The position numbers were made by a program, and so were the translations under genes. The notes beneath the pieces were generated by a model that did no database searches, was not told the origin of the DNA, and worked only from the letters and a program-made list of their open reading frames with translations. This document shows positions 1,727-54,362 of a DNA stretch of 64,000 nucleotides, in pieces. Origin of the DNA: Candidatus Kaiserbacteria bacterium (GTDB taxonomy: Bacteria; Patescibacteriota; Minisyncoccia; Phycocordibacterales; UBA918); the NCBI GenBank assembly GCA_016699245.1, contig CP064968.1, forward strand, positions 155,386 to 219,385, given 5' to 3'. The first letter of the stretch is position 1; the number at the start of each line of letters is the position of its first letter.

Positions 1727-2434
1727 GTGATAAAATATTTGAGTATGGAAATTCCCCAAAATATTCTCAATAAATTTTTGGTTAGACCAGACTATTTGGA
1801 GTGGATTGAAGCCCAGCAGTCAATTTATGTATATTTTGACTTTACTAATATGCTCCATTGGCAGGATAGACTAGGTTGGAAATTTCGTTTTGAGGACTTA
1901 ATGACACAACTTCTTTCATACCCAAATATAAAAGAAGTAAAACTATACTATGGCGAGAATCCACGCGATGAACTTAATTCTAAAGCTTTTCATTCTCGGT
2001 TGCGCAAAACAGGCGCTATTGTTCGCAGTAAACCAATGAAGTTTATACAGAGACACATACATGAAGGGCTATTCTTTCAACGCAATACATTAGCAACCTT
2101 TGATGAAACCATTTCAGCGAGTATTGTCACAGTTGTAGAGCAATTAAAGGAATCAGGATTGGTTATTGAAGAACCAAAATGTAATTTCGATGTTGAAATG
2201 ACGATGGATTTACTTGATGATACCGAAAAATTTACAACAGTTCTCCTTTTTTCTGGTGACTCTGATATGTATGCCCCATTAGAGCGTCTAAAAATTAAGG
2301 GTAAGGCGATTGGTGTTGTTGGTGTTCGTGGTCATGTTTCGACCGAATTACACGAAGTTAAAGATAAATATATTGACTTCGGAAAGTTTTATACAGGCAA
2401 GCGCAACTATAAAAGCGAAAATCCCGCCAATTAA
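1727..2434 (+). CDS. NYN-domain (LabA-like) protein
   Basis: Acidic motifs (FDVEMTMDLLDD, FSGDSDM) consistent with NYN/LabA nuclease fold. Weak call. Confidence 0.4.
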   Translation: MIKYLSMEIPQNILNKFLVRPDYLEWIEAQQSIYVYFDFTNMLHWQDRLGWKFRFEDLMTQLLSYPNIKEVKLYYGENPRDELNSKAFHSRLRKTGAIVRSKPMKFIQRHIHEGLFFQRNTLATFDETISASIVTVVEQLKESGLVIEEPKCNFDVEMTMDLLDDTEKFTTVLLFSGDSDMYAPLERLKIKGKAIGVVGVRGHVSTELHEVKDKYIDFGKFYTGKRNYKSENPAN

Positions 2435-3083
2435 AGCGGGACCGCAAAATTAGTAGAATTGCTTCTACGTTTTAGATTATACAGTATTTATAGCAAATAA
2501 CAATAGTTATCAACACTTATGAAAAGTACTCTCGTATAACAAAAAATCCCTCATTGAGAGGGGTTCTTTGGTATGCCTGGCTTCAGCTTACAGAATCTGA
2601 TGGCTGAACGGGGCTTTCGCCCACAGGCACTATCTAAATATACACCGAATTTCACTGATTGTCGCATAATTATAATGAATTACGAAATCCCTTCTCAAAA
2701 TTTGTAACTATCTCATATGGGGACTGTGGCGAATTGTGCTCGTCACCATTGGTGCAATTTTCTTTTTTGAGCATGGTTTTGGCCAGAGCTATATTTTGAA
2801 TCAGAAAATCTTTTCACAGATATATGGATTTCCACATATGCATTCGTCGTGTTTTACGGCCTTGCGCTATGGCACGTCGTCTCCGAAGGTGAACGTGACG
2901 TGTCTCTTTGGGTAAAGATAAAACAAGGGATTGTAATTTCATTCAACAAAATGCTCTTTGCATTTCTCGTATTCACCATATACATCATGGTAATGGCCGC
3001 TGCGAGTGAAGGGGTGTAGCAGTATGAGATAATAGTTACACAAGCGACATACGTTCAAAAGAGTTTTAAATATTTATGTATTT

Positions 3084-3929
3084 ATGAAAAAAGAATCAAA
3101 AAATAAAGCAATTGCAATTTTTGAAGGCAGTCACATTCGACGTCATTGGGACGACGAAAAAGAACTTTGGTATTTTGCTATTATGGATATTATCCAAGTA
3201 TTAGCACAAACTGACAGACCACGAAAATACTGGAATGATTTGAAAACTAAACTTAAGAAAGAGGGAAGTGAGGTGTCCGAAAAAATCGGACAACTGAAAA
3301 TGCAGGCTAGTGACGGCAAGTTTTATCTTACTGATGTCGCTGATACAGAGGTGTTACTCCGCCTCATCCAATCCATTCCATCCCCAAACGCTGAGCCATT
3401 CAAGCTTTGGCTTGCGCGTGTGGGCTACGAGCGCCTCGAAGAGACTGCCGACCCAGAATTGGCCATTCAACGCTCTCTTAAGACATATTTGCAAAAGGGA
3501 TACAGCAAAGACTGGATTAACCAACGACTGAAGAGTATCGAAATCCGAAAGACGCTCACTGATGAATGGGAAAAGCGAGGTGCAAAAGAAGGTCTAGAGT
3601 TTGCCATCCTCACAAACGAAATTACCAAGGCATGGACTGGCATGACGACCAAAGAATACAAAAATTTAAAAGGACTAAAAAAAGAAAATCTGCGTGACAA
3701 CATGACCAACCTTGAATTGGTGCTCAACATGCTCGCAGAGACGGCAACAACAGAAATCTCAGAAAAACGTGAGCCAAAAACGCTGGACGAAAATAAGATT
3801 GTTGCTCGTGAAGGCGGAAGTATTGCAGGTAATGCGCGCAAAGACATTGAGGCAAAAACAGGAAAGAAAGTAATCACAAAGAAAAACGCAAAAGTGCTCC
3901 TTGCAAAAAATATTAAGAAAATTAAATAG
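3084..3929 (+). CDS. DNA-damage-inducible protein D (DinD)-like, Bro-N/KilA-N N-terminus
   Basis: C-terminal KGLKKENLRDNMTNLELVLNMLAETATTEISEKRE parallels E. coli DinD KGLKKNQKILDHMGSTELAANLFRATQTEEKLKRDG. N-terminal Bro-N-like region. Confidence 0.65.
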   Translation: MKKESKNKAIAIFEGSHIRRHWDDEKELWYFAIMDIIQVLAQTDRPRKYWNDLKTKLKKEGSEVSEKIGQLKMQASDGKFYLTDVADTEVLLRLIQSIPSPNAEPFKLWLARVGYERLEETADPELAIQRSLKTYLQKGYSKDWINQRLKSIEIRKTLTDEWEKRGAKEGLEFAILTNEITKAWTGMTTKEYKNLKGLKKENLRDNMTNLELVLNMLAETATTEISEKREPKTLDENKIVAREGGSIAGNARKDIEAKTGKKVITKKNAKVLLAKNIKKIK

Positions 3930-4066
3930 CAGTTACAAAGGTCAGACCTCGCCGGCATCTTCTACGGCATCGACTCTGTACCAAAAGGCTGGTATGAAGC
4001 TGTAGTGAGAATAGGGGAGATAGAGGAATTGTGTGTTTAGTTGAATAGATGCTACGCTACTACTAT

Positions 4067-4933
4067 ATGAAAACTCAAATCATACAGGTCGTTAAATTTG
4101 TTGGAGCAGTAGTCCTGGTAGCAATTTTGATTCCTACTATTTTTTATGTTTCTCTTCTATTGTGGGGAGATTGGCATGATGAATGGAGCGGATACAACGC
4201 AGGATGGTATATAAGTGATGGTCAATGCAATATTGCGGTGATTCCGATTGATGGAGAAATCACTACGTTTCCATATGAACTTGGAGGCGAGGAAGAGGGT
4301 GACCCTCCATCACTCTCTACAAGTATGACCGACACACTTTCGCTCCTCAATACTGCCGAAAATTATGACCCCAACATTCAGGGAATCCTCATGCTCATCG
4401 ACTCAGGAGGAGGCTCACCATCAGCATCGAAGATGATTGCTGATGAGTTGAAGGGAAGTACACTTCCTGTCGCGGCCTTTATTCTCGACTATGCAGCTTC
4501 CGGTGGCTACTACGTAGCCACCGGCGCCGACACCATCATCGCCAATCCATTTTCCGACGTGGGCTCCATTGGCATCACCATGTCATATCTCGACTACTCA
4601 AAGCAAAATGCTGAGCAGGGGCTCGAGTACGTTTCACTCTCCTCTGGCAAATTCAAGGATTCAGGCACGCCAGACAGGGCGCTCACCGCAGAAGAGCGCG
4701 CACTCTTTGAGCGCGACTTAAAGATTTACCACGACACCTTTGTAAAAGAAGTGGCACAGAATCGTAATCTCCCTGTAGAAGACGTAGCAAAACTAGCCGA
4801 CGGCTCCACCCTCCCCGCACCACTAGCATTAGAAGCCAAACTCATCGATCAAATAGGAGGGAAGGAAGATGCTCGCGCGTGGTTTGCAGAGCAATTGGGG
4901 ATGAATGTGGAGGATGTGGTGTTATGTCAGTAA
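4067..4933 (+). CDS. sppA: S49 peptidase, SppA-like (36K type), N-terminal TM anchor
   Basis: ILMLIDSGGGSPSAS and catalytic region DYAASGGYYVATGAD; TM helix at N-terminus. Start moved to MKTQ. Confidence 0.65.
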   Translation: MKTQIIQVVKFVGAVVLVAILIPTIFYVSLLLWGDWHDEWSGYNAGWYISDGQCNIAVIPIDGEITTFPYELGGEEEGDPPSLSTSMTDTLSLLNTAENYDPNIQGILMLIDSGGGSPSASKMIADELKGSTLPVAAFILDYAASGGYYVATGADTIIANPFSDVGSIGITMSYLDYSKQNAEQGLEYVSLSSGKFKDSGTPDRALTAEERALFERDLKIYHDTFVKEVAQNRNLPVEDVAKLADGSTLPAPLALEAKLIDQIGGKEDARAWFAEQLGMNVEDVVLCQ

Positions 4934-5004
4934 GACTTTCTTTTAAAAATGACATATTTTCAAGAATAATTGAGTAAAGTGAGTTGAGATGATAGTGTTA
5001 TATT

Positions 5005-5352
5005 ATGACTAATTCAGACAGACTTGAGAATTTAACAGAAAGAATAATTCAATTTCGTGACGACCGAGATTGGAAGCAATTTCACGACCCAAAGAATCTT
5101 GCCATTTCTCTACAGTTAGAGGCCTCAGAGGTTTTAGAGCTTTTTCAGTGGACGAAAGATAATGAGATAAAGAACGGAAAAGAAGAAGAAATTGCAGACG
5201 AACTCAGTGATGTCTTTTACTGGGTCATTATGCTTGCACATTACTACAAAATTGACCTCATTGGTGCTTTGGAAAAGAAAATGTATAAAAATGAAGTAAA
5301 GTATCCAGTAGAAAAAGCTAAAGGAAAGGCCGACAAGTATACCGAACTCTAA
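5005..5352 (+). CDS. MazG-like nucleotide pyrophosphohydrolase
   Basis: RDWKQFHDPKNLAISLQLEASEVLELFQW matches the MazG/NTP-PPase fold. Stop lies 1 nt before the next ATG, so operonic. Confidence 0.6.
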   Translation: MTNSDRLENLTERIIQFRDDRDWKQFHDPKNLAISLQLEASEVLELFQWTKDNEIKNGKEEEIADELSDVFYWVIMLAHYYKIDLIGALEKKMYKNEVKYPVEKAKGKADKYTEL

Positions 5353-5353
5353 T

Positions 5354-7663
5354 ATGATTGTTTATCAATCAACGAAACTGGGGTTTTTAAAAGATGCTTC
5401 AAATGGAATTGAAGATATTGTTAGGTCTCGAGTAAAGGAAAAACTTAATATTGATATTCAAGTTGGAAGTAGCGAGTACAACTCATGGAAAAATTCCCTT
5501 GGCGATGCAATGTATAAAGTAATGCAGACAGATAAGATCCCAGATGATTCCGGCATAGCTATCGAATATTCAATACCTCGAGCAAAAAATCGCATCGATT
5601 TTATTATTACAGGTGAAGATGATGAAGGAAAAGAAAAAATAATTATCATAGAACTTAAACAGTGGACTGATATAGAAAAGACAGACAAAGATGGTGTCGT
5701 CTTGACTCGTTTCAAAAGTGGTCCGAGCGAAGAACCGCATCCTTCATATCAAGCCTGGTCATACTCAGCTCTTCTTTATGGATTCAATGCAACAGTATAC
5801 GAAGAAAAAATTAGCCTAGAGCCTTGCGCATACCTACATAATCATATTGATAGTGATGTTATTTTAAGCCCATTTTATCAAGAGTATTTGGATAAAGCCC
5901 CAGCATTTTGTAAAGGTGACAAAGAAAAACTTCAAGATTTTATCGCTAAATTTGTAAAGCATGGTGAAAAGAAAAATACACTTTATAGAATAGATAATGG
6001 AGAAATTCGCCCATCAAAAAATCTTGCTGACAGTCTTACCTCAATGCTAAAAGGTAATCAAGAATTTGTTTTGATAGATGAACAAAAAGTTGTATACGAA
6101 ACTGCTCTATCTCTTACGAAAAAATCATCAAAACAAAATAAAAATGTATTAATTATCGAAGGTGGCCCAGGTACAGGTAAATCAGTTGTAGCCATAAATC
6201 TTTTAGTTGCAATTACTAAACTTGGACTGAATACACAGTATGTAACAAAGAATGCTGCGCCACGGGGAGTGTTTGAAGCAAAACTTACGGGCACATTTAA
6301 GAAATCAGAAATATCAAATTTTTTTACAGGATCCGGTTCCTTTGTTGGAGAAAAGGAAAATATTTTTGATGCTCTAATTGTAGACGAAGCTCATAGACTT
6401 AATAAAAAGTCTGGGATGTTTAAGAATTTAGGCGAAAACCAAATAAAAGAAATTATTGATTCTGCAAAATGCTCAATATTTTTTATTGATGAGGATCAAA
6501 AAGTGACGTGGCATGATATAGGTAAAAAAGAAGAAATTGAAAAATGGGCTGATAAAATCCATGCTAAAGTTTGTAACCTTAAGCTCGAATCGCAATTTCG
6601 GTGCAATGGTTCCGATGGCTACTTATCGTGGCTCGATAATATTCTCGGTATTAAAGATACTGCCAATACCACACTGGATGGTATAGAGTACGATTTTAGG
6701 GTTATAGACTCGCCTAACGAGCTGAGAGATTTAATTTTTGAAAAAAATAAGATAAATAATAAGGCTCGACTCGTAGCAGGATATTGTTGGGATTGGGTCA
6801 GTAAAAAAGACAAGCGTTTAAATGACATTCTTATTCCAGAGCATGATTTTGGTATGCAGTGGAACCTTGCGAGTGATGGAAACGTATGGATTATATCGCC
6901 AAAGTCTGTAAATGAAATTGGTTGTATCCACACATGCCAAGGCCTAGAAGTTGATTATGTTGGAGTTATTGTGGGTAGAGATTTTGTTATAAGAAACGGT
7001 AAAGTAATCACTAATCCTCATGAACGTGCAAAAACTGACGCCTCATTGAAGGGATATAAAAAAGAATTAAAAGAAAGACCAGAAGTTACAGCCGAAAAGG
7101 CTATGTCGATAATTAAAAATACTTATCGAACCCTTATGACACGCGGAATGAAAGGGTGCTATGTATATTTTGTAGACAAAGAAACTGAAAAATACTTTAA
7201 AGACAGAATGAACCTTTCAACACTTACTAAAAAGCCAGTATCAGAAAGTATTATTTCTCCATATGTAGAGGAAATGGTTCTAGTTCCACTCGTTGGATCT
7301 GCGCCTTGTGGTGAGCCACTTTTCGGTGAATCAAATATTGAAGACGTGATACAGGTTGAAAAAAGAAAAATCAGACCCGGCTCAAAATATTTCATTGTCC
7401 GTGCCTCTGGTGATTCAATGAATAAGGCTGGTATAAATGACAACGACCTCGTATTGTGTCGTTTTGCAGAGAAGGCAGAAACTGGTGACAGAGTAGTCGC
7501 GCTACTTGGTGGTGAATATGTGACTATAAAATACTATGATAAAAAAGATGGTCGTCGAATTCTGCTTCCAAAAAGTACAAACAGCACTCACCAACCAATA
7601 ACTCCTGAGGAAGGAGACGTGGTGCAGGGTATTGTTCAAGAAATTTTGCCTAATCCTGAGTAA
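5354..7663 (+). CDS. Multidomain protein: N-terminal PD-(D/E)xK nuclease-like, DUF2075/Schlafen-like P-loop ATPase, C-terminal LexA-type S24 autopeptidase domain
   Basis: N-terminus RIDFIITGED...IIIELKQW (D..ExK). Walker A GGPGTGKS, Walker B IVDEAHRL (DUF2075 pattern). C-terminus PLVGSAPCGEPLFG...ASGDSMNKAGI...VTIKYY parallels LexA PLVGRVAAGEPL...GMSM...VTVKRL (scissile C-G, Ser/Lys dyad). Confidence 0.6.
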   Translation: MIVYQSTKLGFLKDASNGIEDIVRSRVKEKLNIDIQVGSSEYNSWKNSLGDAMYKVMQTDKIPDDSGIAIEYSIPRAKNRIDFIITGEDDEGKEKIIIIELKQWTDIEKTDKDGVVLTRFKSGPSEEPHPSYQAWSYSALLYGFNATVYEEKISLEPCAYLHNHIDSDVILSPFYQEYLDKAPAFCKGDKEKLQDFIAKFVKHGEKKNTLYRIDNGEIRPSKNLADSLTSMLKGNQEFVLIDEQKVVYETALSLTKKSSKQNKNVLIIEGGPGTGKSVVAINLLVAITKLGLNTQYVTKNAAPRGVFEAKLTGTFKKSEISNFFTGSGSFVGEKENIFDALIVDEAHRLNKKSGMFKNLGENQIKEIIDSAKCSIFFIDEDQKVTWHDIGKKEEIEKWADKIHAKVCNLKLESQFRCNGSDGYLSWLDNILGIKDTANTTLDGIEYDFRVIDSPNELRDLIFEKNKINNKARLVAGYCWDWVSKKDKRLNDILIPEHDFGMQWNLASDGNVWIISPKSVNEIGCIHTCQGLEVDYVGVIVGRDFVIRNGKVITNPHERAKTDASLKGYKKELKERPEVTAEKAMSIIKNTYRTLMTRGMKGCYVYFVDKETEKYFKDRMNLSTLTKKPVSESIISPYVEEMVLVPLVGSAPCGEPLFGESNIEDVIQVEKRKIRPGSKYFIVRASGDSMNKAGINDNDLVLCRFAEKAETGDRVVALLGGEYVTIKYYDKKDGRRILLPKSTNSTHQPITPEEGDVVQGIVQEILPNPE

Positions 7664-7782
7664 AAAATGGAAGAGAAGCGGTGGTGTAGTGAAATGGGGA
7701 TAAGTACGTTTTAATTTCAGAAAAATAAGGTCAGCCACAATTTTTTATTGGTAATAACTTATGATTCTGATTTTAATGGTGG

Positions 7783-8128
7783 TCCGGTGGCAGGAGGATT
7801 CTTCCATTACATGGACCGTTTAGGTCGTATGACAATTTCTTCCTCTGGTCGAAATTGTCGACGACCTTTTCGAATCCTGACGAAAGCAATTTTGTATTGC
7901 TTTCTCCACTGGAGCTTGTTAGCAAAAATCCCCAAAGAGGGGATTTTTGCTAACAAGCTCCAGTGGCAGGAATTTCTCCATCGACTAATTTTCTAACGAA
8001 AATTGTCTGGGCACCGACTCACTGTTGCAAAGCAACATGCTCCGTCGTTCGAATCCTGACGAAATGTGCGCAGGCACATTTCTCCACCTCCGCAAATTAA
8101 AATAACCCCATGAGGGGTTATTTTAATT
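7783..8128. repeat. Two degenerate tandem units (~173-175 bp) carrying tRNA-Asn 3'-end-like motifs and terminator-like hairpins
   Basis: tccggtggcagga at 7783-7795 and tccagtggcagga at 7958-7971 versus the tRNA 3' end at 8131-8144. Shared ttcgaatcctgacgaaa+hairpin+ttctcca blocks. A-run/stem/T-run hairpins at 7924-7949 and 8099-8127. Confidence 0.6.
8099..8127. terminator. Bidirectional intrinsic terminator hairpin after tRNA-Asn
   Basis: aaaataacccc-atga-ggggttatttt: stem with flanking A/T runs. Confidence 0.6.
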
Positions 8129-8130
8129 TG

Positions 8131-8461
8131 CTCCGGTGGCAGGATTCGAACCTGCGGCCAATTGATTACACGTGTCCTACTATTTCTAGTGGGGGTGGAC
8201 TATATCATCATCCTTTCAAAACTGAATAGGATGCAAGGCGCTTCGACCCATTTCTGGGGCTACTCCCGTTAGGGATAGTCTCTGAACCTTCAATGATGTT
8301 TTCACATCAAAGCTTGGCTGCTGATTGCCCACAACATTACTTGCTAGGGTTTCCAGACAATTCACCTTGTTTTCGACCTACTTCTCAGTAGGAAGCTGCA
8401 TTTTGAAACTCGATTGAGTTCGTGTTTACAGTCAACTGCTCTACCGCTGAGCTACACCGGA
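8131..8461 (-). tRNA. tRNA-Asn(GUU) interrupted by a group I intron between anticodon positions 35 and 36
   Basis: Exons (8461-8428 and 8168-8131) join to UCCGGUGUAGCUCAGCGGUAGAGCAGUUGACUGU|UAAUCAAUUGGCCGCAGGUUCGAAUCCUGCCACCGGAG. Cloverleaf with U1-A72, loop CUGUUAA, T-arm GGUUCGAAUCC. CCA not encoded. Confidence 0.75.
8169..8427 (-). ncRNA. Group I intron (259 nt) within tRNA-Asn
   Basis: Core elements on minus strand: P AATTGTCTGGAAA, Q AATCAGCAGCCAAGC, R GTTCAGAGACTA, S GATGATATAGTCC. IGS GCAG can pair with exon CUGU; intron ends in G (CACGTG|TAAT). Confidence 0.7.
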
Positions 8462-8850
8462 ATGTGTATTTTTTCTGTGTACTTCATTGATAGTGTGGAA
8501 GCAATCTCTTGGGGAGCAGTTGACTGACAGTCAACTTTCTTACAGAAACTGTTCAGGTTGTATGATAATTTTCGTAAACTCAAATTATCGACAACCTCTT
8601 GCGAAGTGACTTTGTGTCACTTCTCACTCTACCGCTGAGCTACACCGGAATGTGTAGTCTATTCCATTATAGCCATTGTTAGCGTGAAACTTCTGTATTG
8701 GGAGCAGTTGACTGACAGTCAACCTCCTTAACAGGAGCTGTTTAGGTTGTATGATATTTTCTTTCGAAAATCTCGACAACCTCTTGCGAAGTGACTTTGT
8801 GTCACTTCTCACTCCACCGCTGAACTATACTGGAATGTGTACTTTGTCTC
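8462..8850. repeat. Tandem repeats (~185-188 bp, 2 units plus stub) each carrying a copy of the tRNA-Asn 5' end
   Basis: Units start at 8462, 8650 and 8835 (aatgtgta...). Each contains ctctaccgctgagctacaccgg (rev-comp of tRNA 5' 22 nt; third copy degenerate) and the palindrome gttgactgtcagtcaac related to tRNA GCAGTTGACTGT. Confidence 0.65.
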
Positions 8851-8988
8851 TCTATTAGGGACAGACAGCATTGTACAGAAAAATGGCGAGTCTGCAAATG
8901 GATAGCGAGGAATATGGGGTGGGAGGGGGGTAGGGCGGTATTGGTGATATACTCAGGTATTATGCGCTATGCATTTAGTCACTAGTAT

Positions 8989-9210
8989 ATGTACATACGT
9001 GTTCATGCGATTCCTAACGCAAAGAAAGAGAAGGTGATACGTGAAGACGAGACCACTTTTACTATTTCCGTAAAGGAGCCCGCAACACAAAATCTCGCCA
9101 ACAAGCGGATTCGGGAAGTTTTGGCTCAGGAATTAGGTGTTTCTCCTACGCACGTGCGCCTACTGACGGGACACCAAAATAGGAGTAAAATGTATAGTGT
9201 AGAGATGTAG
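8989..9210 (+). CDS. DUF167/YggU-family small protein
   Basis: Pattern VHAIPNAKKEKV...ISVKEPATQNLANKRIREVLAQELGV resembles UPF0235/YggU. Confidence 0.5.
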   Translation: MYIRVHAIPNAKKEKVIREDETTFTISVKEPATQNLANKRIREVLAQELGVSPTHVRLLTGHQNRSKMYSVEM

Positions 9211-16269: not shown

Positions 16270-16539
16270 ATGCTTGGATTCGTGTACTCCCGTCGGGAGT
16301 TTGAAAAAGGTGCACCAGTAAAGTTCGAACGGTACGGTGTTCTCCTAACAGGAAGGGTGTTGGAGCAAAATGGCGAACGTGTCAGGATTGCACTTACTAA
16401 ACCTGTCATTGTGGTCACCAAAACCATCAAGAAAAAATGGTTTGGGCGTATTGAAGAATTGAGTCAAGTGTCAAAATTGGTCTCTGAGATTGAACTTGCG
16501 TCGCACTATGTGTATTCGATTGACGAAGCACATTTGTAA
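16270..16539 (+). CDS. Hypothetical protein
   Basis: ORF only. Confidence 0.3.
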   Translation: MLGFVYSRREFEKGAPVKFERYGVLLTGRVLEQNGERVRIALTKPVIVVTKTIKKKWFGRIEELSQVSKLVSEIELASHYVYSIDEAHL

Positions 16540-16586
16540 TATTAAGAAAGTCTCAGAGCCATCATGGCATCGTGTGAAATTACACG

Positions 16587-17711
16587 GTGCCATTTTATTT
16601 TCCCCTCCTTGTTACTTACGATACGCCTATGGCGCGGTATGATACTGGTATGGAAATACCACAGCAGAAATTTAAAACCCCTGAGGAGGAGATTGCTTTT
16701 TTACGTGGAGAGATGGCACGGCGTGAGCAGGAGGTCCTCTCTCGTAATAGAGAGATGGATGCCGCCGACCGTGACAGTGTGGGAAAGGAGGTTATTCGTG
16801 AGTACGCTGAGCATGATCCCGTCATGGTTCTTGAAAAGAAGCATCAACTTACGCCGCTGGCTGTTGCCGAATCTCATGGGCATGTGGAAATTGCACCTCA
16901 TAAAGTGGAGGAGATAATCCACATAGCGTATGAAAAGGGTATTAGGAACGCGATGTCGGTCCTCGAGCGTATGAACGACCCGTTTCTCGCTGATGAAGTC
17001 CATCGCGAACTCGCGCGACTTATTAGGAATGAAACGCAGGTCGCTGACCTTAAAGAAAGTATGCCGCTCTGGAAAGTGCTCAACATGTCACTTTTTGAGA
17101 TATCTCTTCCACATCAACCCGATGAGTCCAAGCAAGATAATATCAAAGCCATCTTTTCAGCAATGGAGCAATTTTATTCCGGCATGCAGACCATTTCGGC
17201 ACGCAAGAGCCATTTGTGTTACACGCTTGAAATCGCTGTCTCTGATAAAAGTGACGATATTATTTTCTATGTTGCTGTCCCTACTGAGTTTGAAAATCTG
17301 TTTGAAAAACATTCACTTTCGCTTTTCCCACATGCGGTCCTCCGTGCCCAGCAAAACGATTACAATATTTTTGTGGATGGTGGTGTAAGTATGGTGTCTG
17401 TCCTTGAACTTAAAAAACATCCCATCTATCCACTCAAGCTCCATGAGACTTTCGAGAAGGATCCACTCAATGTTATTTTGAATGCATTTTCAAAAATTGA
17501 ACGCAATGGCGGTGGTGCAGCAATTCAGATAGTAGTCGGCAATAGCGCTGATGAATACCATGACGAATATAGCAGTATTGTGAAACGTATGGAGAAAGGT
17601 GAAAAAGCAGAAGTATCGATTCGTAAAAGCAGTTTTGGCGGTCAACTTTTTGAACTGGTGAAAGACATGGCGGTAGACCAAAAAAAGAAAGATGACCCCA
17701 ACCAATGCTGA
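16587..17711 (+). CDS. Hypothetical protein, translationally coupled to downstream TraG/VirD4-like ATPase
   Basis: ORF overlaps next gene by 20 nt. No recognised domain. True start may be at an internal Met. Confidence 0.4.
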   Translation: MPFYFPLLVTYDTPMARYDTGMEIPQQKFKTPEEEIAFLRGEMARREQEVLSRNREMDAADRDSVGKEVIREYAEHDPVMVLEKKHQLTPLAVAESHGHVEIAPHKVEEIIHIAYEKGIRNAMSVLERMNDPFLADEVHRELARLIRNETQVADLKESMPLWKVLNMSLFEISLPHQPDESKQDNIKAIFSAMEQFYSGMQTISARKSHLCYTLEIAVSDKSDDIIFYVAVPTEFENLFEKHSLSLFPHAVLRAQQNDYNIFVDGGVSMVSVLELKKHPIYPLKLHETFEKDPLNVILNAFSKIERNGGGAAIQIVVGNSADEYHDEYSSIVKRMEKGEKAEVSIRKSSFGGQLFELVKDMAVDQKKKDDPNQC

Positions 17712-43790: not shown

Positions 43791-44157
43791 ACAAGGAGTA
43801 CGGTACCCTCATTGTACTAAAGAAAATAAAAAAGTGGACAGGGAAACGAGGCTAAAAGGGAGGCGTGTGATGATAGAGGTACATGAGTTACATTCTATGA
43901 TTTAAAGAAAGTGAGGGGGGACAGGGACAATAAACTTTAATATTTCATGGTGTAATTTGTGATCACAAGTTGCTAAGTATATTTGGTCATGCGGAATGCA
44001 TTGTGGTCACAAGTTACTAACTATAATTGTTCGCTCTGCTCCAATTCTAGTAAGTACTTTTCGACCTCGGCTCGCGGTTCGTCGCCCTAGGAAGGGGCGA
44101 CTCATATCGCTCCGCCCTCACAGTTGGCCCGTACACAAAGCAGTTTGTGTACTAAAA

Positions 44158-44204
44158 CAAAAGAGTCGTTGTCTTTCAACAAGACAACGACTCTTTTGTT
44201 TTGC
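44158..44204. terminator. Hairpin terminator
   Basis: aaaagagtcgttgtctt-tcaaca-agacaacgactcttttgtttt. Confidence 0.55.
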
Positions 44205-44208
44205 CAAC

Positions 44209-44226
44209 TGTGACCCTACCGGGAAA
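44209..44226. repeat. Partial copy of tRNA-Glu 3' end (tgaccctaccgggaa)
   Basis: 15/15 identity to 44407-44421 (tRNA-Glu 3' acceptor/T-stem), then divergence. A further T-arm-like remnant ggtcttcgattcccgga lies at ~44297. Confidence 0.55.
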
Positions 44227-44406
44227 TTCGAAGCCTACTGCTTCAGTACACCTTGTCAGTATTTTGTTTCCTTTCAGTCACAAAATACTAGGCAAGGTCT
44301 TCGATTCCCGGACGAAGAGTCTCTCAGACTCTTCTTAGGGTCATGGGAAGTTTAACAAAGAAAAATCCCTTATGAATAAGGGATTTTTCTTTAAAAACTT
44401 CTACCA

Positions 44407-44478
44407 TGACCCTACCGGGAATCGAACCCGGATTTCTTGGATGAGAACCAAGTGTCCTAACCGTTAGACGATAGGGCC
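44407..44478 (-). tRNA. tRNA-Glu(CUC)
   Basis: Minus strand GGCCCUAUCGUCUAACGGUUAGGACACUUGGUUCUCAUCCAAGAAAUCCGGGUUCGAUUCCCGGUAGGGUCA. Good cloverleaf; anticodon loop UUCUCAU; CCA not encoded. Confidence 0.75.
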
Positions 44479-44593
44479 GAATGTACGTTTTGCATCATTG
44501 TAGTTTAAATCTGGCCGCCTGCGTCACTTTTGCTTCTGGGTAGAAGAAAAAGTGACAGACTCAGAAATTATAGTCGCTTGCGCTCTTTAATTT

Positions 44594-44612
44594 CTGGCCA
44601 CCGTTAGACGAT
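44594..44612. repeat. Partial copy of tRNA-Glu 5' region (accgttagacgatagggcc)
   Basis: 19/19 identity to 44460-44478. Confidence 0.55.
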
Positions 44613-44736
44613 AGGGCCAGACTGTCTGTGAAGACAGAATTGGTGAGTAAAACACATGCCAGCGTTTTCTCAATTCAAATGCTGATTACTCAGCAAAAGT
44701 AGTTATACCAGATTTTTATATTTTAATAAAGCGCTT

Positions 44737-44772
44737 ACATAGGCCTTGCCTATGGTGAAATGCCTGTGTAGA
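44737..44772. repeat. Left copy of 36-bp direct repeat flanking dinJ-yafQ (acataggccttgcctatggtgaaatgcctgtgtaga)
   Basis: Near-identical copy at 45437-45473. Contains palindrome cataggc-ctt-gcctatg. Confidence 0.6.
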
Positions 44773-44814
44773 AACTAGGGAACAGGGAACATTACAGGTA
44801 ATTTCTTATGTACG

Positions 44815-44852
44815 TACATTGTGTTGACAATGTAAGTACATACGATTAAACT
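44815..44852 (+). promoter_or_regulatory. Promoter (TTGACA-N17-TAAACT) with overlapping 8-bp inverted-repeat operator for dinJ-yafQ; probably leaderless
   Basis: TTGACA 44824-44829, TAAACT 44847-44852. IR tacattgt/acaatgta spans the -35. ATG at 44859 lies only 6 nt after the -10. Confidence 0.5.
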
Positions 44853-44858
44853 ATATGC

Positions 44859-45125
44859 ATGACTACATTAAGCATACGTATTGAAGAAAAGACAAAGAAA
44901 GAAGCGGCAAAGACACTTGCTGCGCTTGGACTTGATATGTCGAGTGCAGTAAAGATGTTTCTCCATCAGGTGGTAATAGAGCAGGGAATTCCTTTTAAAC
45001 CTACACGCACACCTCGTGAAATTGTAGATGAATATGACAAGGAGGTGGCATGGGCAAAGAAGCATGGGAAACGATACTCGAACGCGAGTGAGATGTTTGC
45101 GGATATTATGAAAGAGAAGGACTAG
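44859..45125 (+). CDS. dinJ: Type II antitoxin, DinJ/RelB family
   Basis: RHH-like N-terminus; pattern IRIEEKTKKEAAKTLAALGLDMSSAVKMFLHQVV matches DinJ. Confidence 0.7.
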   Translation: MTTLSIRIEEKTKKEAAKTLAALGLDMSSAVKMFLHQVVIEQGIPFKPTRTPREIVDEYDKEVAWAKKHGKRYSNASEMFADIMKEKD

Positions 45126-54123: not shown

Positions 54124-54329
54124 TGGGGTTCTTTACTAGTATGTCGCACTCTGCGACATAAAATATGCATCGGCGGTGGCCGATTCTTCTGCTAGCAAAG
54201 AACCCTGGTCCCACCTTTGGTGGGGTTCTTTACTAGTATGTCGCACTCTGCGACATAAAATATGCATCGGCGGTGGCCGATTCTTCTGCTAGCAAAGAAC
54301 CCTGGTCCCACCTTTGGTGGGGTTCTTTA
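54124..54329. repeat. Perfect 97-bp tandem repeat (2.1 copies) encoding a three-hairpin structured element
   Basis: Units start at 54124, 54221 and 54318. Hairpins: tatgtcgca-ctc-tgcgacata; atcggc-ggtg-gccgat; long stem ctagcaaagaaccc/gggttctttactag. Confidence 0.7.
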
Positions 54330-54362
54330 CAAATATTATATACCATGTCATAATAATGTTGC

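Follow-up and report, generated by a model that had tools for sequence, protein, structure and literature searches.

The 178-bp repeats of the tyrT locus of Escherichia coli and the RtT RNA were described between 1978 and 1991. One RtT unit is reported to yield the stable rtT RNA (Bosl & Kersten 1991, cited in PMC3318445), and one is annotated as the small RNA RttR (gene rttR), which published accounts present as a processed product of the tyrT operon with an unclear role in stress or the stringent response. At the K-12 locus, four RtT units (RF00391, 133-137 bits) occupy the tyrT-tyrV spacer and the region past tyrV with a period of 178 bp. Each of them starts with GGGGAAGGAU, the complement of the tRNA-Tyr 3' end, followed by (U)GAGAA, and ends in AAUCCUUCCCCCACCACCA, the tRNA-Tyr 3' end itself. 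In Patescibacteria, group I introns are known at position 35/36 of tRNA-Asn and tRNA-Asp, and their self-splicing has been demonstrated (Nakagawa et al., mSystems 2026, PMC13011429); repeats flanking the tRNA go unmentioned in that paper. Here, we analysed a 64,000-nucleotide window of a Candidatus Kaiserbacteria genome (contig CP064968.1), in which an intron-bearing tRNA-Asn(GUU) gene is surrounded by repeat units that each carry a copy of one end of the tRNA. In the order of the tRNA strand, the array reads U3-U2-tRNA-D1-D2, with 5'-end copies in the upstream units (U) and 3'-end copies in the downstream units (D).

A prediction made earlier from the letters of the window had recognized this halo and attributed it to repeated integration and excision, to tandem duplication and decay of the tRNA gene, or to intron homing. 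We found instead that the units belong to a large family of structured non-coding elements. The family is well supported, with very strong covariation and at least 120 metagenome loci. Its cores fall into two or more classes, Rfam has no entry for it, and we found no description of it in the literature searched. Its nearest known relatives in design are the RtT units.

A conserved core between tRNA-matched arms

The downstream unit is approximately 135-140 nt long and consists of a conserved, non-tRNA core clamped between arms that match the neighbouring tRNA. The 3' arm copies the T loop, the 3' strand of the T stem, the acceptor 3' strand and the discriminator of that tRNA, and the 5' arm is the complement of the 3' arm, interrupted by a variable hairpin (hairpin 1). 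In core class A, the interior is predicted to form a three-way junction in the order UUCGAAG, hairpin 2, RUACNG, hairpin 3 (with a GUA tip) and GAAU. In the outer part of this predicted fold, the acceptor-like arm is followed by GAGAA, hairpin 1 and UUCGU; a T-like stem then encloses GAAG, hairpin 2, RUACNG and hairpin 3, and GAAU leads into the 3' strands of T stem and acceptor. The single-stranded junctions UCGAAGACCUU and AAGGUGUACUG and the GUA tip are invariant over more than 100 copies. Class B has a different multi-helix core, composed of CGNCGGAG, a hairpin, GAGNCGGUGCCCAGAC, a second hairpin and GUCGAGGGAG, and a third arrangement of the arms, without hairpin 1, occurs in Yonathbacteria-type loci.

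Covariation supports these folds. RNAalifold predicted 32 pairs for nine class-A units, 27 of them with compensatory change, and for class B 24 of 44 pairs showed compensatory change among five sequences. In an alignment of 118 units, 93.9% of cells were paired, compared with 29-50% in slid or shifted controls, and double-change cells numbered 912 versus 260±13 in shuffles. A covariance model built from class-A units (R1) gave 31 matches, 27 of which lie on the fmt strand (plus in the fetched loci, minus in the window), that is, the strand of tRNA-Asn. Among the best were D2 (7781-7914, 115.7 bits, E 7.5e-31) and the unit downstream of tRNA-Glu, D(Glu) (106.1 bits). Both lie downstream of their tRNA on the same strand and carry its 3' end as their 3' arm. 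U2 (8521-8634, 43.2 bits), U3 (8709-8819, 40.9 bits) and D1 (39.2 bits) are divergent relatives. No Rfam family fell on the units in searches of 7600-9000 and 43900-44900 at gathering score and at E ≤10, which returned sub-threshold miRNA-type hairpins only. Two further ideas about the units were rejected. The hairpin-1 loop was considered as a cognate codon or 'specifier', since the Glu unit has GAG there and some of the Asn units have AAU/AAC, but the units as a whole are not consistent in this. The class-A junction was considered as a hammerhead or other small ribozyme; its strands do not fit a hammerhead in order and lengths, and Rfam gave no ribozyme match.

Plain tandem duplication and decay does not capture the central feature of the units, the conserved, strongly covarying core that is not tRNA. 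The arms, like the pseudo-anticodon arm of the upstream units, plainly come from the tRNA, a local tandem duplication that includes promoter-proximal sequence accounts for U2 and U3, and R1 gave weak matches on real tRNAs in two related loci (L065 and L011). Nevertheless, the view that the units are decayed tandem tRNA duplicates, that is, pseudogenes of no further significance, is very improbable and already contradicted by the interior, which is not tRNA-like and is conserved between units of unrelated tRNAs. The tRNA model (RF00005) did not match any unit at E ≤10, in keeping with arms as the only tRNA-derived parts, and the same architecture would have had to originate independently behind at least 26 tRNA species.

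The arms follow the local tRNA. A search of related genomes for the same units near other tRNAs, which the original prediction had proposed, found them there. We retrieved 80 related loci (L numbers) through the Fmt gene adjoining the array; nearly all are labelled Patescibacteria or candidate phyla inside it (Kaiserbacteria, Paceibacterota), and many keep tRNA-Asn downstream of fmt. Of 40 tRNAs in these loci, 12 have their own 3' end repeated at a distance of 140-210 nt downstream, 10 are accompanied by the antisense T segment and 7 by an upstream copy of the 5' end, with no match in swapped-tRNA controls. The arm sequences vary accordingly (TCCTCGG/CCGGGGA in L019 and L024; TCCGCGA/TCGCGGA in L062), and units also stand at tRNA-Pro (L029) and tRNA-Arg (L069). 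A downstream unit is present at 17 of 32 uninterrupted tRNA-Asn loci from different Paceibacteria species.

A pattern made of the two invariant class-A junctions (TCGAAGACCTT, N30-60, AAGGTGTACTG) detected the metagenome loci. Among the matches listed, 82 of 122 units follow a tRNA of the same strand at a distance of up to 700 nt, in most cases 50-92 nt; within 300 nt upstream, the tRNA is on the same strand for 81 of the 122 and on the opposite strand for 5. The preceding tRNAs cover at least 26 anticodons. Again among the matches listed, 39 of 72 units have a 3' arm with 0-1 mismatch to the last 14 nt of their own tRNA, and no arm has fewer than three mismatches to another tRNA. Over its 12 nt, the antisense T segment shows at most one mismatch in 52 of the 72. 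Furthermore, units are often placed within tRNA operons with spacers of 6-30 nt, as tRNAs themselves are (L241, L270, L219 and L254). For example, the order is Cys, Leu, Lys, unit, Leu, class-B unit, Leu in L241 and Lys, unit, Leu in L270.

The tRNA-Asn and tRNA-Glu arrays of the window

Table 1. Features of the two arrays in the window.
Feature	Coordinates	Strand	Basis
Promoter-like site, TTTGCA / 17 nt / TACAAT, 5' of the whole array	8870..8898	-	consensus match only
Upstream unit U3	8650..8834	-	repeat families, R1 match, alignment A4
Upstream unit U2	8462..8649	-	repeat families, R1 match, alignment
tRNA-Asn(GUU) 5' exon, nt 1-35, end ...CUGU	8428..8461	-	
Group I intron, 259 nt, anticodon-loop position 35/36, last base G	8169..8427	-	RF00028
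tRNA-Asn 3' exon, nt 36-73, discriminator G at 8131	8131..8168	-	ARAGORN on joined exons
Spacer hairpin 1: A-run, GC stem, T-run	8094..8130	-	inverted repeat I2
Downstream unit D1, core class B	7957..8093	-	inverted/direct repeats, 5-sequence consensus, R1
Spacer hairpin 2	7916..7956	-	inverted repeat I1
Downstream unit D2, core class A	7781..7915	-	R1 match, class-A alignments
tRNA-Glu upstream unit	44479..44618	-	exact copy of tRNA-Glu nt 1-19 (44618-44600), then two hairpins
tRNA-Glu(CUC)	44407..44478	-	ARAGORN, Rfam
tRNA-Glu downstream unit D(Glu), core class A	44211..44345	-	R1 match, 106.1 bits

The 3'-end copies lie in the two downstream units, where the original prediction had placed them. 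The 16-mer TGCTCCGGTGGCAGGA (8129-8144), which is the tRNA-Asn 3' end on the plus strand, recurs at 7956-7971 (81%) and 7780-7795 (94%), giving spacings of 173 and 176 nt (repeat family D5). With up to three mismatches, the 3'-end 15-mer of tRNA-Asn occurs four times in the window, compared with 0.79 expected, and three of these are at the array with at most one mismatch. The remaining match (1852, two mismatches) is within a NYN gene. D1 runs from a 5' arm, GCGGAGGUGG, through GAGAA, hairpin 1, UUCGU and CAGGAUUCGAAC (8058-8047), the complement of the T loop and T stem, to the core CGACGGAGC-hairpin-GAGUCGGUGCCCAGAC-hairpin-GUCGAUGGAG and the 3' arm AAUUCCUGCCACUGGAGC. D2 consists of the 5' arm GCUCCAGUGG, AGAAA, hairpin 1, UUCGU, CAGGAUUCGAA (7879-7869), hairpin 2, AAACGG, hairpin 3 (GUA tip) and GAAUCCUCCUGCCACCGGACC. 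Both units hold CAGGATTCGAA(C), 12 nt that match the reverse complement of T loop and T-stem 3' strand perfectly (repeats I9 and D8).

Terminator-like structures had been noted as well. Inverted repeats with an A-run and a T-run are indeed present after tRNA-Asn (I2, 26 nt, 88%, arms 8084-8109/8114-8139) and after D1 (I1, 28 nt, 100%, arms 7906-7933/7939-7966), but a strict terminator scan called neither hairpin. I2 runs from the acceptor 3' strand of the tRNA through spacer hairpin 1 into the 5' arm of D1, and I1 runs from the 3' arm of D1 through spacer hairpin 2 into the 5' arm of D2.

On the 5' side, CTCTACCGCTGAGCTACACCGGAATGTGTA occurs in the tRNA itself (8439) and again at 8627 and 8812, with spacings of 188 and 185 nt (repeat family D1). 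The upstream 5' copies thus stood as described, but the supposed 'stub' is a full, degenerate third unit, U3. It consists of a degenerate copy of tRNA-Asn nt 1-23 (8834-8812), UGAGAA, hairpin 1, GCAAG, a long hairpin 2, AACAG, hairpin 3 (GUA tip) and a palindrome resembling an anticodon arm (8723-8706). U2 has the same core behind an exact copy of the 7 nt preceding the tRNA plus nt 1-23 (8656-8627), and the two units are 81-92% identical. The palindrome GTTGACTGACAGTCAAC, found at 8519-8536 and 8706-8723, derives from the D/anticodon-stem junction, as had been proposed: in U2 (8536-8519), its 3' half plus TGCTC is a perfect 13-nt complement of tRNA nt 22-34 (inverted matches I7 and I8). The non-tRNA interiors of upstream and downstream units are homologous, judging from a 39-nt repeat family (D3) common to D2, U2 and U3 and from the covariance-model matches. 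An upstream unit starts with promoter-proximal bases and tRNA nt 1-23, continues with the core in armless form and closes with an anticodon arm that has decayed and been 'perfected'. L011 and L004 have orthologues of U2 and U3. Between the window and L011, hairpin 2 with its loop GAGUUUAC differs at 2 of ~52 nt, although Fmt is 57% identical, and hairpin 1 has been fully replaced with pairing retained. Upstream 5'-end copies with other interiors are also found at Gln, Trp, Leu, Lys and Glu tRNAs, and 'perfected' pseudo-anticodon palindromes in L065 and L078. By sequence comparison, the promoter-site motif TTTTCTGTACAAT also precedes the tRNA-Asn arrays in L004 and L017. A model of nested outer and inner tRNAs, pairing U3 with D2 and U2 with D1, was rejected for the unequal numbers of upstream and downstream units (0/3 in L017, 1/0 in L004).

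The tRNA-Glu gene at 44.4 kb, suspected earlier to repeat the pattern, does so with one upstream and one downstream unit. Its first 19 nt are repeated 140 nt upstream, and D(Glu) carries CCGGGAAUCGAA, a 12/12 complement of the Glu T loop and T stem. In D(Glu), 15 nt of the 3' end of tRNA-Glu also recur exactly (44225-44211), 182 nt downstream. A small open reading frame (ORF) just upstream of this array (44860-45100, minus strand) reads by eye like a RelB/DinJ-type antitoxin.

The tRNA-Asn gene (8461-8131, minus strand) was missed when ARAGORN was run on the window, which returned tRNA-Glu, because it is split by an intron; a gene of this kind escapes annotation for that reason. The intron is an RF00028 match at 8431-8176 (83.5 bits, E 9e-20), and the joined exons were called tRNA-Asn(gtt). 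With a 5' exon ending in U and an intron ending in G, it is a member of the tRNA-Asn 35/36 group I introns of Patescibacteria. An intron occupies the matching site in L017 and L007. Units are present in both of these and equally in intron-less relatives (L001, L011, L024, L062 and others), so the intron is irrelevant to the halo and intron homing is not supported as its cause. The intron P3 strands UCGAAGCGCCUUG and CAAGGUGAAUUG (8235-8250 and 8366-8380, minus strand) resemble the class-A junctions UCGAAGACCUUG and CAAGGUGUACUG. Derivation of the core from a group I intron was considered on the likeness of TCGAAG(C)GCCTTG / CAAGGTG(A)A(T)TG and rejected; the likeness has a rough E of ~0.3 and may be chance, and R1 did not match the intron.

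We agree with the original prediction that the array is not a single integrase attachment (att) duplication, and the extension of that idea, in which the copies are attL/attR scars of repeated tRNA-targeting integration and excision, is essentially refuted. Direct repeats of the tRNA 3' end on its 3' side are the classic signature of such events, and a low-GC block with defence- or mobile-type genes abuts D2. Nevertheless, Pfam searches of eight ORFs around the array (FtsK, NYN, Bro-N, S49, MazG-like, Schlafen helicase-S24, DUF167 and HPF) found no integrase, recombinase or transposase, so the search for a cognate enzyme nearby that had been suggested came back empty. The 3' copies are ~175 nt apart, which leaves no room for an element; att sites would enclose one of kilobase size, compared with spacings of 173-188 nt here. 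The 5' copies lie on the 5' side, where tRNA-targeting integrases do not leave them. The interior has a conserved fold, and units stand between operon tRNAs. In blastn searches of the units, phages matched the intron core only and plasmids gave nothing, and a viral pattern scan showed no R1 unit in 80 of at least 120 matches; phage or plasmid att regions were accordingly rejected. It follows for annotation that tRNA-end copies beside tRNA genes in these genomes are not to be read as prophage or island borders.

The low-GC block itself spans 1727-7663 (0.37-0.41, compared with 0.44-0.49 elsewhere) and ends ~120 nt from D2. It encodes NYN, Bro-N, an S49 peptidase, a MazG-like protein and a Schlafen-type helicase fused to an S24 peptidase, and looks like a defence or mobile island. 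No integrase was found in the block, and no copy of the tRNA-Asn 3' end with at most one mismatch at its far border. Elsewhere in the window, an intergenic sequence just past a terminator (54124-54330) is a perfect 97-bp tandem repeat (2.1 copies, 100% identity) with internal inverted repeats gggttctttactag / ctagcaaagaaccc.

Proposed expression, homogenization and possible mobility of the units

We favour the reading, at a probability of roughly 0.5, that the halo consists of structured RNAs of RtT-type design, co-transcribed with the tRNA and scaffolded by tRNA sequence, with arms homogenized with the neighbouring tRNA. The whole array from U3 and U2 through the intron-bearing tRNA to D1 and D2 would be transcribed together. 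A downstream unit may then fold into an acceptor/T-like coaxial helix that offers a genuine tRNA-type 3' end, and given such an end, we propose that tRNA end-processing enzymes cut at the unit borders. The cutting would release stable small RNAs, and the conserved cores would do the actual job, probably by binding a protein or another RNA. In favour of this reading stand the covariation, the excess of G-U/U-G pairs on the tRNA-sense strand, the same-strand placement within tRNA operons, the tRNA-specific arms and the precedent of the E. coli RtT units. The units have also been retained long-term in very compact genomes. Given that they are kept in tRNA operons of such stripped-down genomes, we argue that these elements do something.

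As for the arms, they form close inverted and direct repeats with the tRNA, on which template switching during replication (quasipalindrome correction or gene conversion) could act to homogenize them. The arms were compared over the acceptor arm alone, which is neutral to the one-base offset of ARAGORN ends. The acceptor 5' arm tracks the 3' arm of the preceding element over its own drifted 3' arm in 11 cases, against 1, and the window itself shows perfect complementarity between the 5' arm of D2 and the 3' arm of D1. We read this tracking and the 'perfected' palindromes as template switching, which would explain the match to the tRNA without a sequence-specific reader.

The same tracking is also expected if the units act at the level of DNA or transcription only, as extended palindromes that serve as bidirectional terminators or insulators and have grown out of the tRNA terminator through template switching, with 'cores' conserved merely through self-perfecting hairpins. 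The long inverted repeats centred on the spacer hairpins (I1, which is perfect, and I2), the pseudo-anticodon arms 'perfected' to palindromes (8519-8536; L065 and L078) and the location of the array between convergent genes would all fit. We nevertheless consider this explanation improbable. Hairpin perfection leaves the invariant single-stranded junctions in more than 100 copies unexplained, and the changes are compensatory rather than perfecting. Orientation is fixed relative to the tRNA, and units are found between operon tRNAs, where termination would harm.

Several observations weigh against the reading of co-transcribed, processed RNAs. The excess of G-U/U-G over A-C/C-A on the tRNA-sense strand (103 versus 61) is moderate, and the alignment was fitted to a sense-strand model. 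Strict promoter and terminator scans of the array found little, and efficient termination at the spacer hairpins would leave the downstream units to read-through. That the 5' arm follows the preceding 3' arm points to a DNA-level process rather than to selection for intramolecular pairing. Approximately half of the tRNA-Asn loci have no unit, so units are dispensable. The link to RtT is also loose: RF00391 (gathering score 45 bits) has no match at 7600-9000 or 43900-44900 at E ≤10, and although the top three R1 matches at the E. coli locus were RtT units on the right strand, they were weak (10.4 bits, E ~0.01). The relation is therefore one of design, possibly of distant homology, and not of family membership.

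Other points on the same side concern mobility. In L246 (2650-3060, Ga0209591_10057034), an armless core is nested within another unit, in the loop of its hairpin 2, and hairpin 1 contains a second insertion. The nested module has the order GAAAA, hairpin 1, GCAAG, hairpin 2, GGACCG, hairpin 3, and it is the clearest hint that cores move. Identical tRNA-Trp genes bear different unit sets, which fits a mobile element equally well. The closest relative of the window, L001 (Fmt 86% identical), has an uninterrupted tRNA-Asn with one downstream unit (16491-16743) that matches D2 in hairpin 2 and is wholly different in hairpins 1 and 3. Units therefore evolve as mosaics, and this replacement of hairpins 1 and 3 also fits a mobile element.

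Arrays of two to three cores stand behind one tRNA in L017 (12370-12715), L278 (6289-6489) and L301 (reverse strand, downstream of tRNA-Trp 1509-1580), some of them joined without acceptor arms or spacer hairpins. Their distal units have T-stem variants that no longer match the current tRNA. Consecutive cores are joined by full hairpin linkers in the window and L246, and by a GAAUC-UUCG-GAUUC mini-hairpin alone in L278.

These features raise the possibility, less likely than the RNA reading but its main rival, that the cores are selfish, non-autonomous insertion modules, similar to introns or to miniature inverted-repeat transposable elements (MITEs), which colonize tRNA genes or their copies. 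Entry would be at the T loop for downstream units and at the D-arm/anticodon-stem junction for upstream units. The tRNA-end copies would be duplicated target, and the fold would serve propagation of the module as single-stranded DNA or RNA rather than the host. Every core is flanked by T-loop halves (UUCGAA ... GAAU) and so looks like a T-loop insertion. Nesting, minimal linkers, the differing sets behind identical tRNA-Trp genes and the empty half of the tRNA-Asn loci agree with such modules. Core subtypes are also shared behind different tRNAs: the window Glu unit and the L062 Asn unit have a hairpin-2 loop in common, the L301 Trp unit resembles D2, and units of one contig share contig-specific hairpin-2 features. 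On the other hand, no transposase, recombinase or reverse transcriptase was found in the eight flanking ORFs, no unit was among the 80 viral loci screened, and the phage and plasmid searches matched none. Within one contig, units that stand behind different tRNAs share 48-69% identity, compared with a mean of 58% across contigs and 89-92% for adjacent duplicates. Units of the same contig are thus no more alike than units of different contigs, which gives no sign of a recent burst, and the near-identical dispersed copies of MITEs were not seen. The unit arms are inverted repeats, yet specific to each tRNA. Moreover, the combination of 5' arm and hairpin 1 is a constant part of the design and not target sequence, and units persist over many families under strong streamlining. 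The RNA reading that we favour and an origin of the cores as selfish modules are compatible and do not exclude each other.

A broader and unlikely proposal is that these units represent an ancient 'shadow' RNA system of Patescibacteria, vestigial in enterobacteria as RtT, in which any tRNA may carry its own companion RNA. If this were true, the arms would copy the acceptor/T helix of that tRNA and exchangeable cores would give the activity. Such an RNA could have a role specific to the tRNA species, for example in sensing the maturation of its cognate tRNA, or as a decoy or competitor towards enzymes, toxins or nucleases that recognize the acceptor-T helix. Cores that spread among tRNA loci by T-loop insertion would then be a new, protein-less mobile RNA module.

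Comparison with described systems

The intron of tRNA-Asn has in common with those of Nakagawa et al. (PMC13011429) its site, the U before the 5' splice site, the terminal G and the fact that the gene is overlooked by annotation tools. It is a feature separate from the units, which stand equally beside intron-less tRNA-Asn genes. With the att duplications of integrases, the units share a direct repeat of the tRNA 3' segment, from T loop to discriminator, downstream of an intact tRNA. They differ in the lack of an integrase or an enclosed element, in the conserved fold of the interior, in inverted copies, in upstream 5' copies and in their placement in operons.

Two kinds of small structured element are also comparable. 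tRNA-like scaffolds, such as the tRNA-like domain of transfer-messenger RNA (tmRNA), mascRNA and the engineered 'tRNA scaffold', likewise place an acceptor/T coaxial helix around a foreign structured insert and share presumed tRNA-end processing. Unlike these, the units keep no T loop or D arm, their arms copy the adjacent tRNA, and Rfam gave no tmRNA or tRNA match. Palindromic miniature repeats (Rickettsia palindromic elements, Correia- and ERIC-type MITEs) are similarly small, protein-less, folding, tolerant of nesting and located at gene ends, whereas the units lack near-identical dispersed copies and have tRNA-customized termini and a fixed orientation to the tRNA.

The closest described system is RtT. 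In both, repeats of ~175-178 bp lie directly 3' of a tRNA and between operon tRNAs on the same strand. In both, the last ~19-20 nt of the upstream tRNA are repeated at the 3' end of every unit, and a 5' complement of the T-stem and acceptor 3' strand, followed by (U)GAGAA, closes the unit, so that arms enclose a structured interior. RtT is known only from tRNA-Tyr of enterobacteria (tyrT/tyrV), whereas at least 26 tRNA species are involved in Patescibacteria, and the window, from a Paceibacteria-type genome, presents units at tRNA-Asn and tRNA-Glu. The cores are unlike, those of Patescibacteria falling into several classes. Furthermore, the 5' arm in Patescibacteria is split by hairpin 1 and spans the whole acceptor strand, and the upstream units with 5'-end copies have no RtT counterpart. 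The common design ties the Patescibacteria units to the old puzzle of the E. coli tyrT 178-bp repeats and RtT. A comparative set with tRNA-specific arms and exchangeable cores makes the questions about RtT, namely its constraint, its processing and the binding partners of its core, testable.

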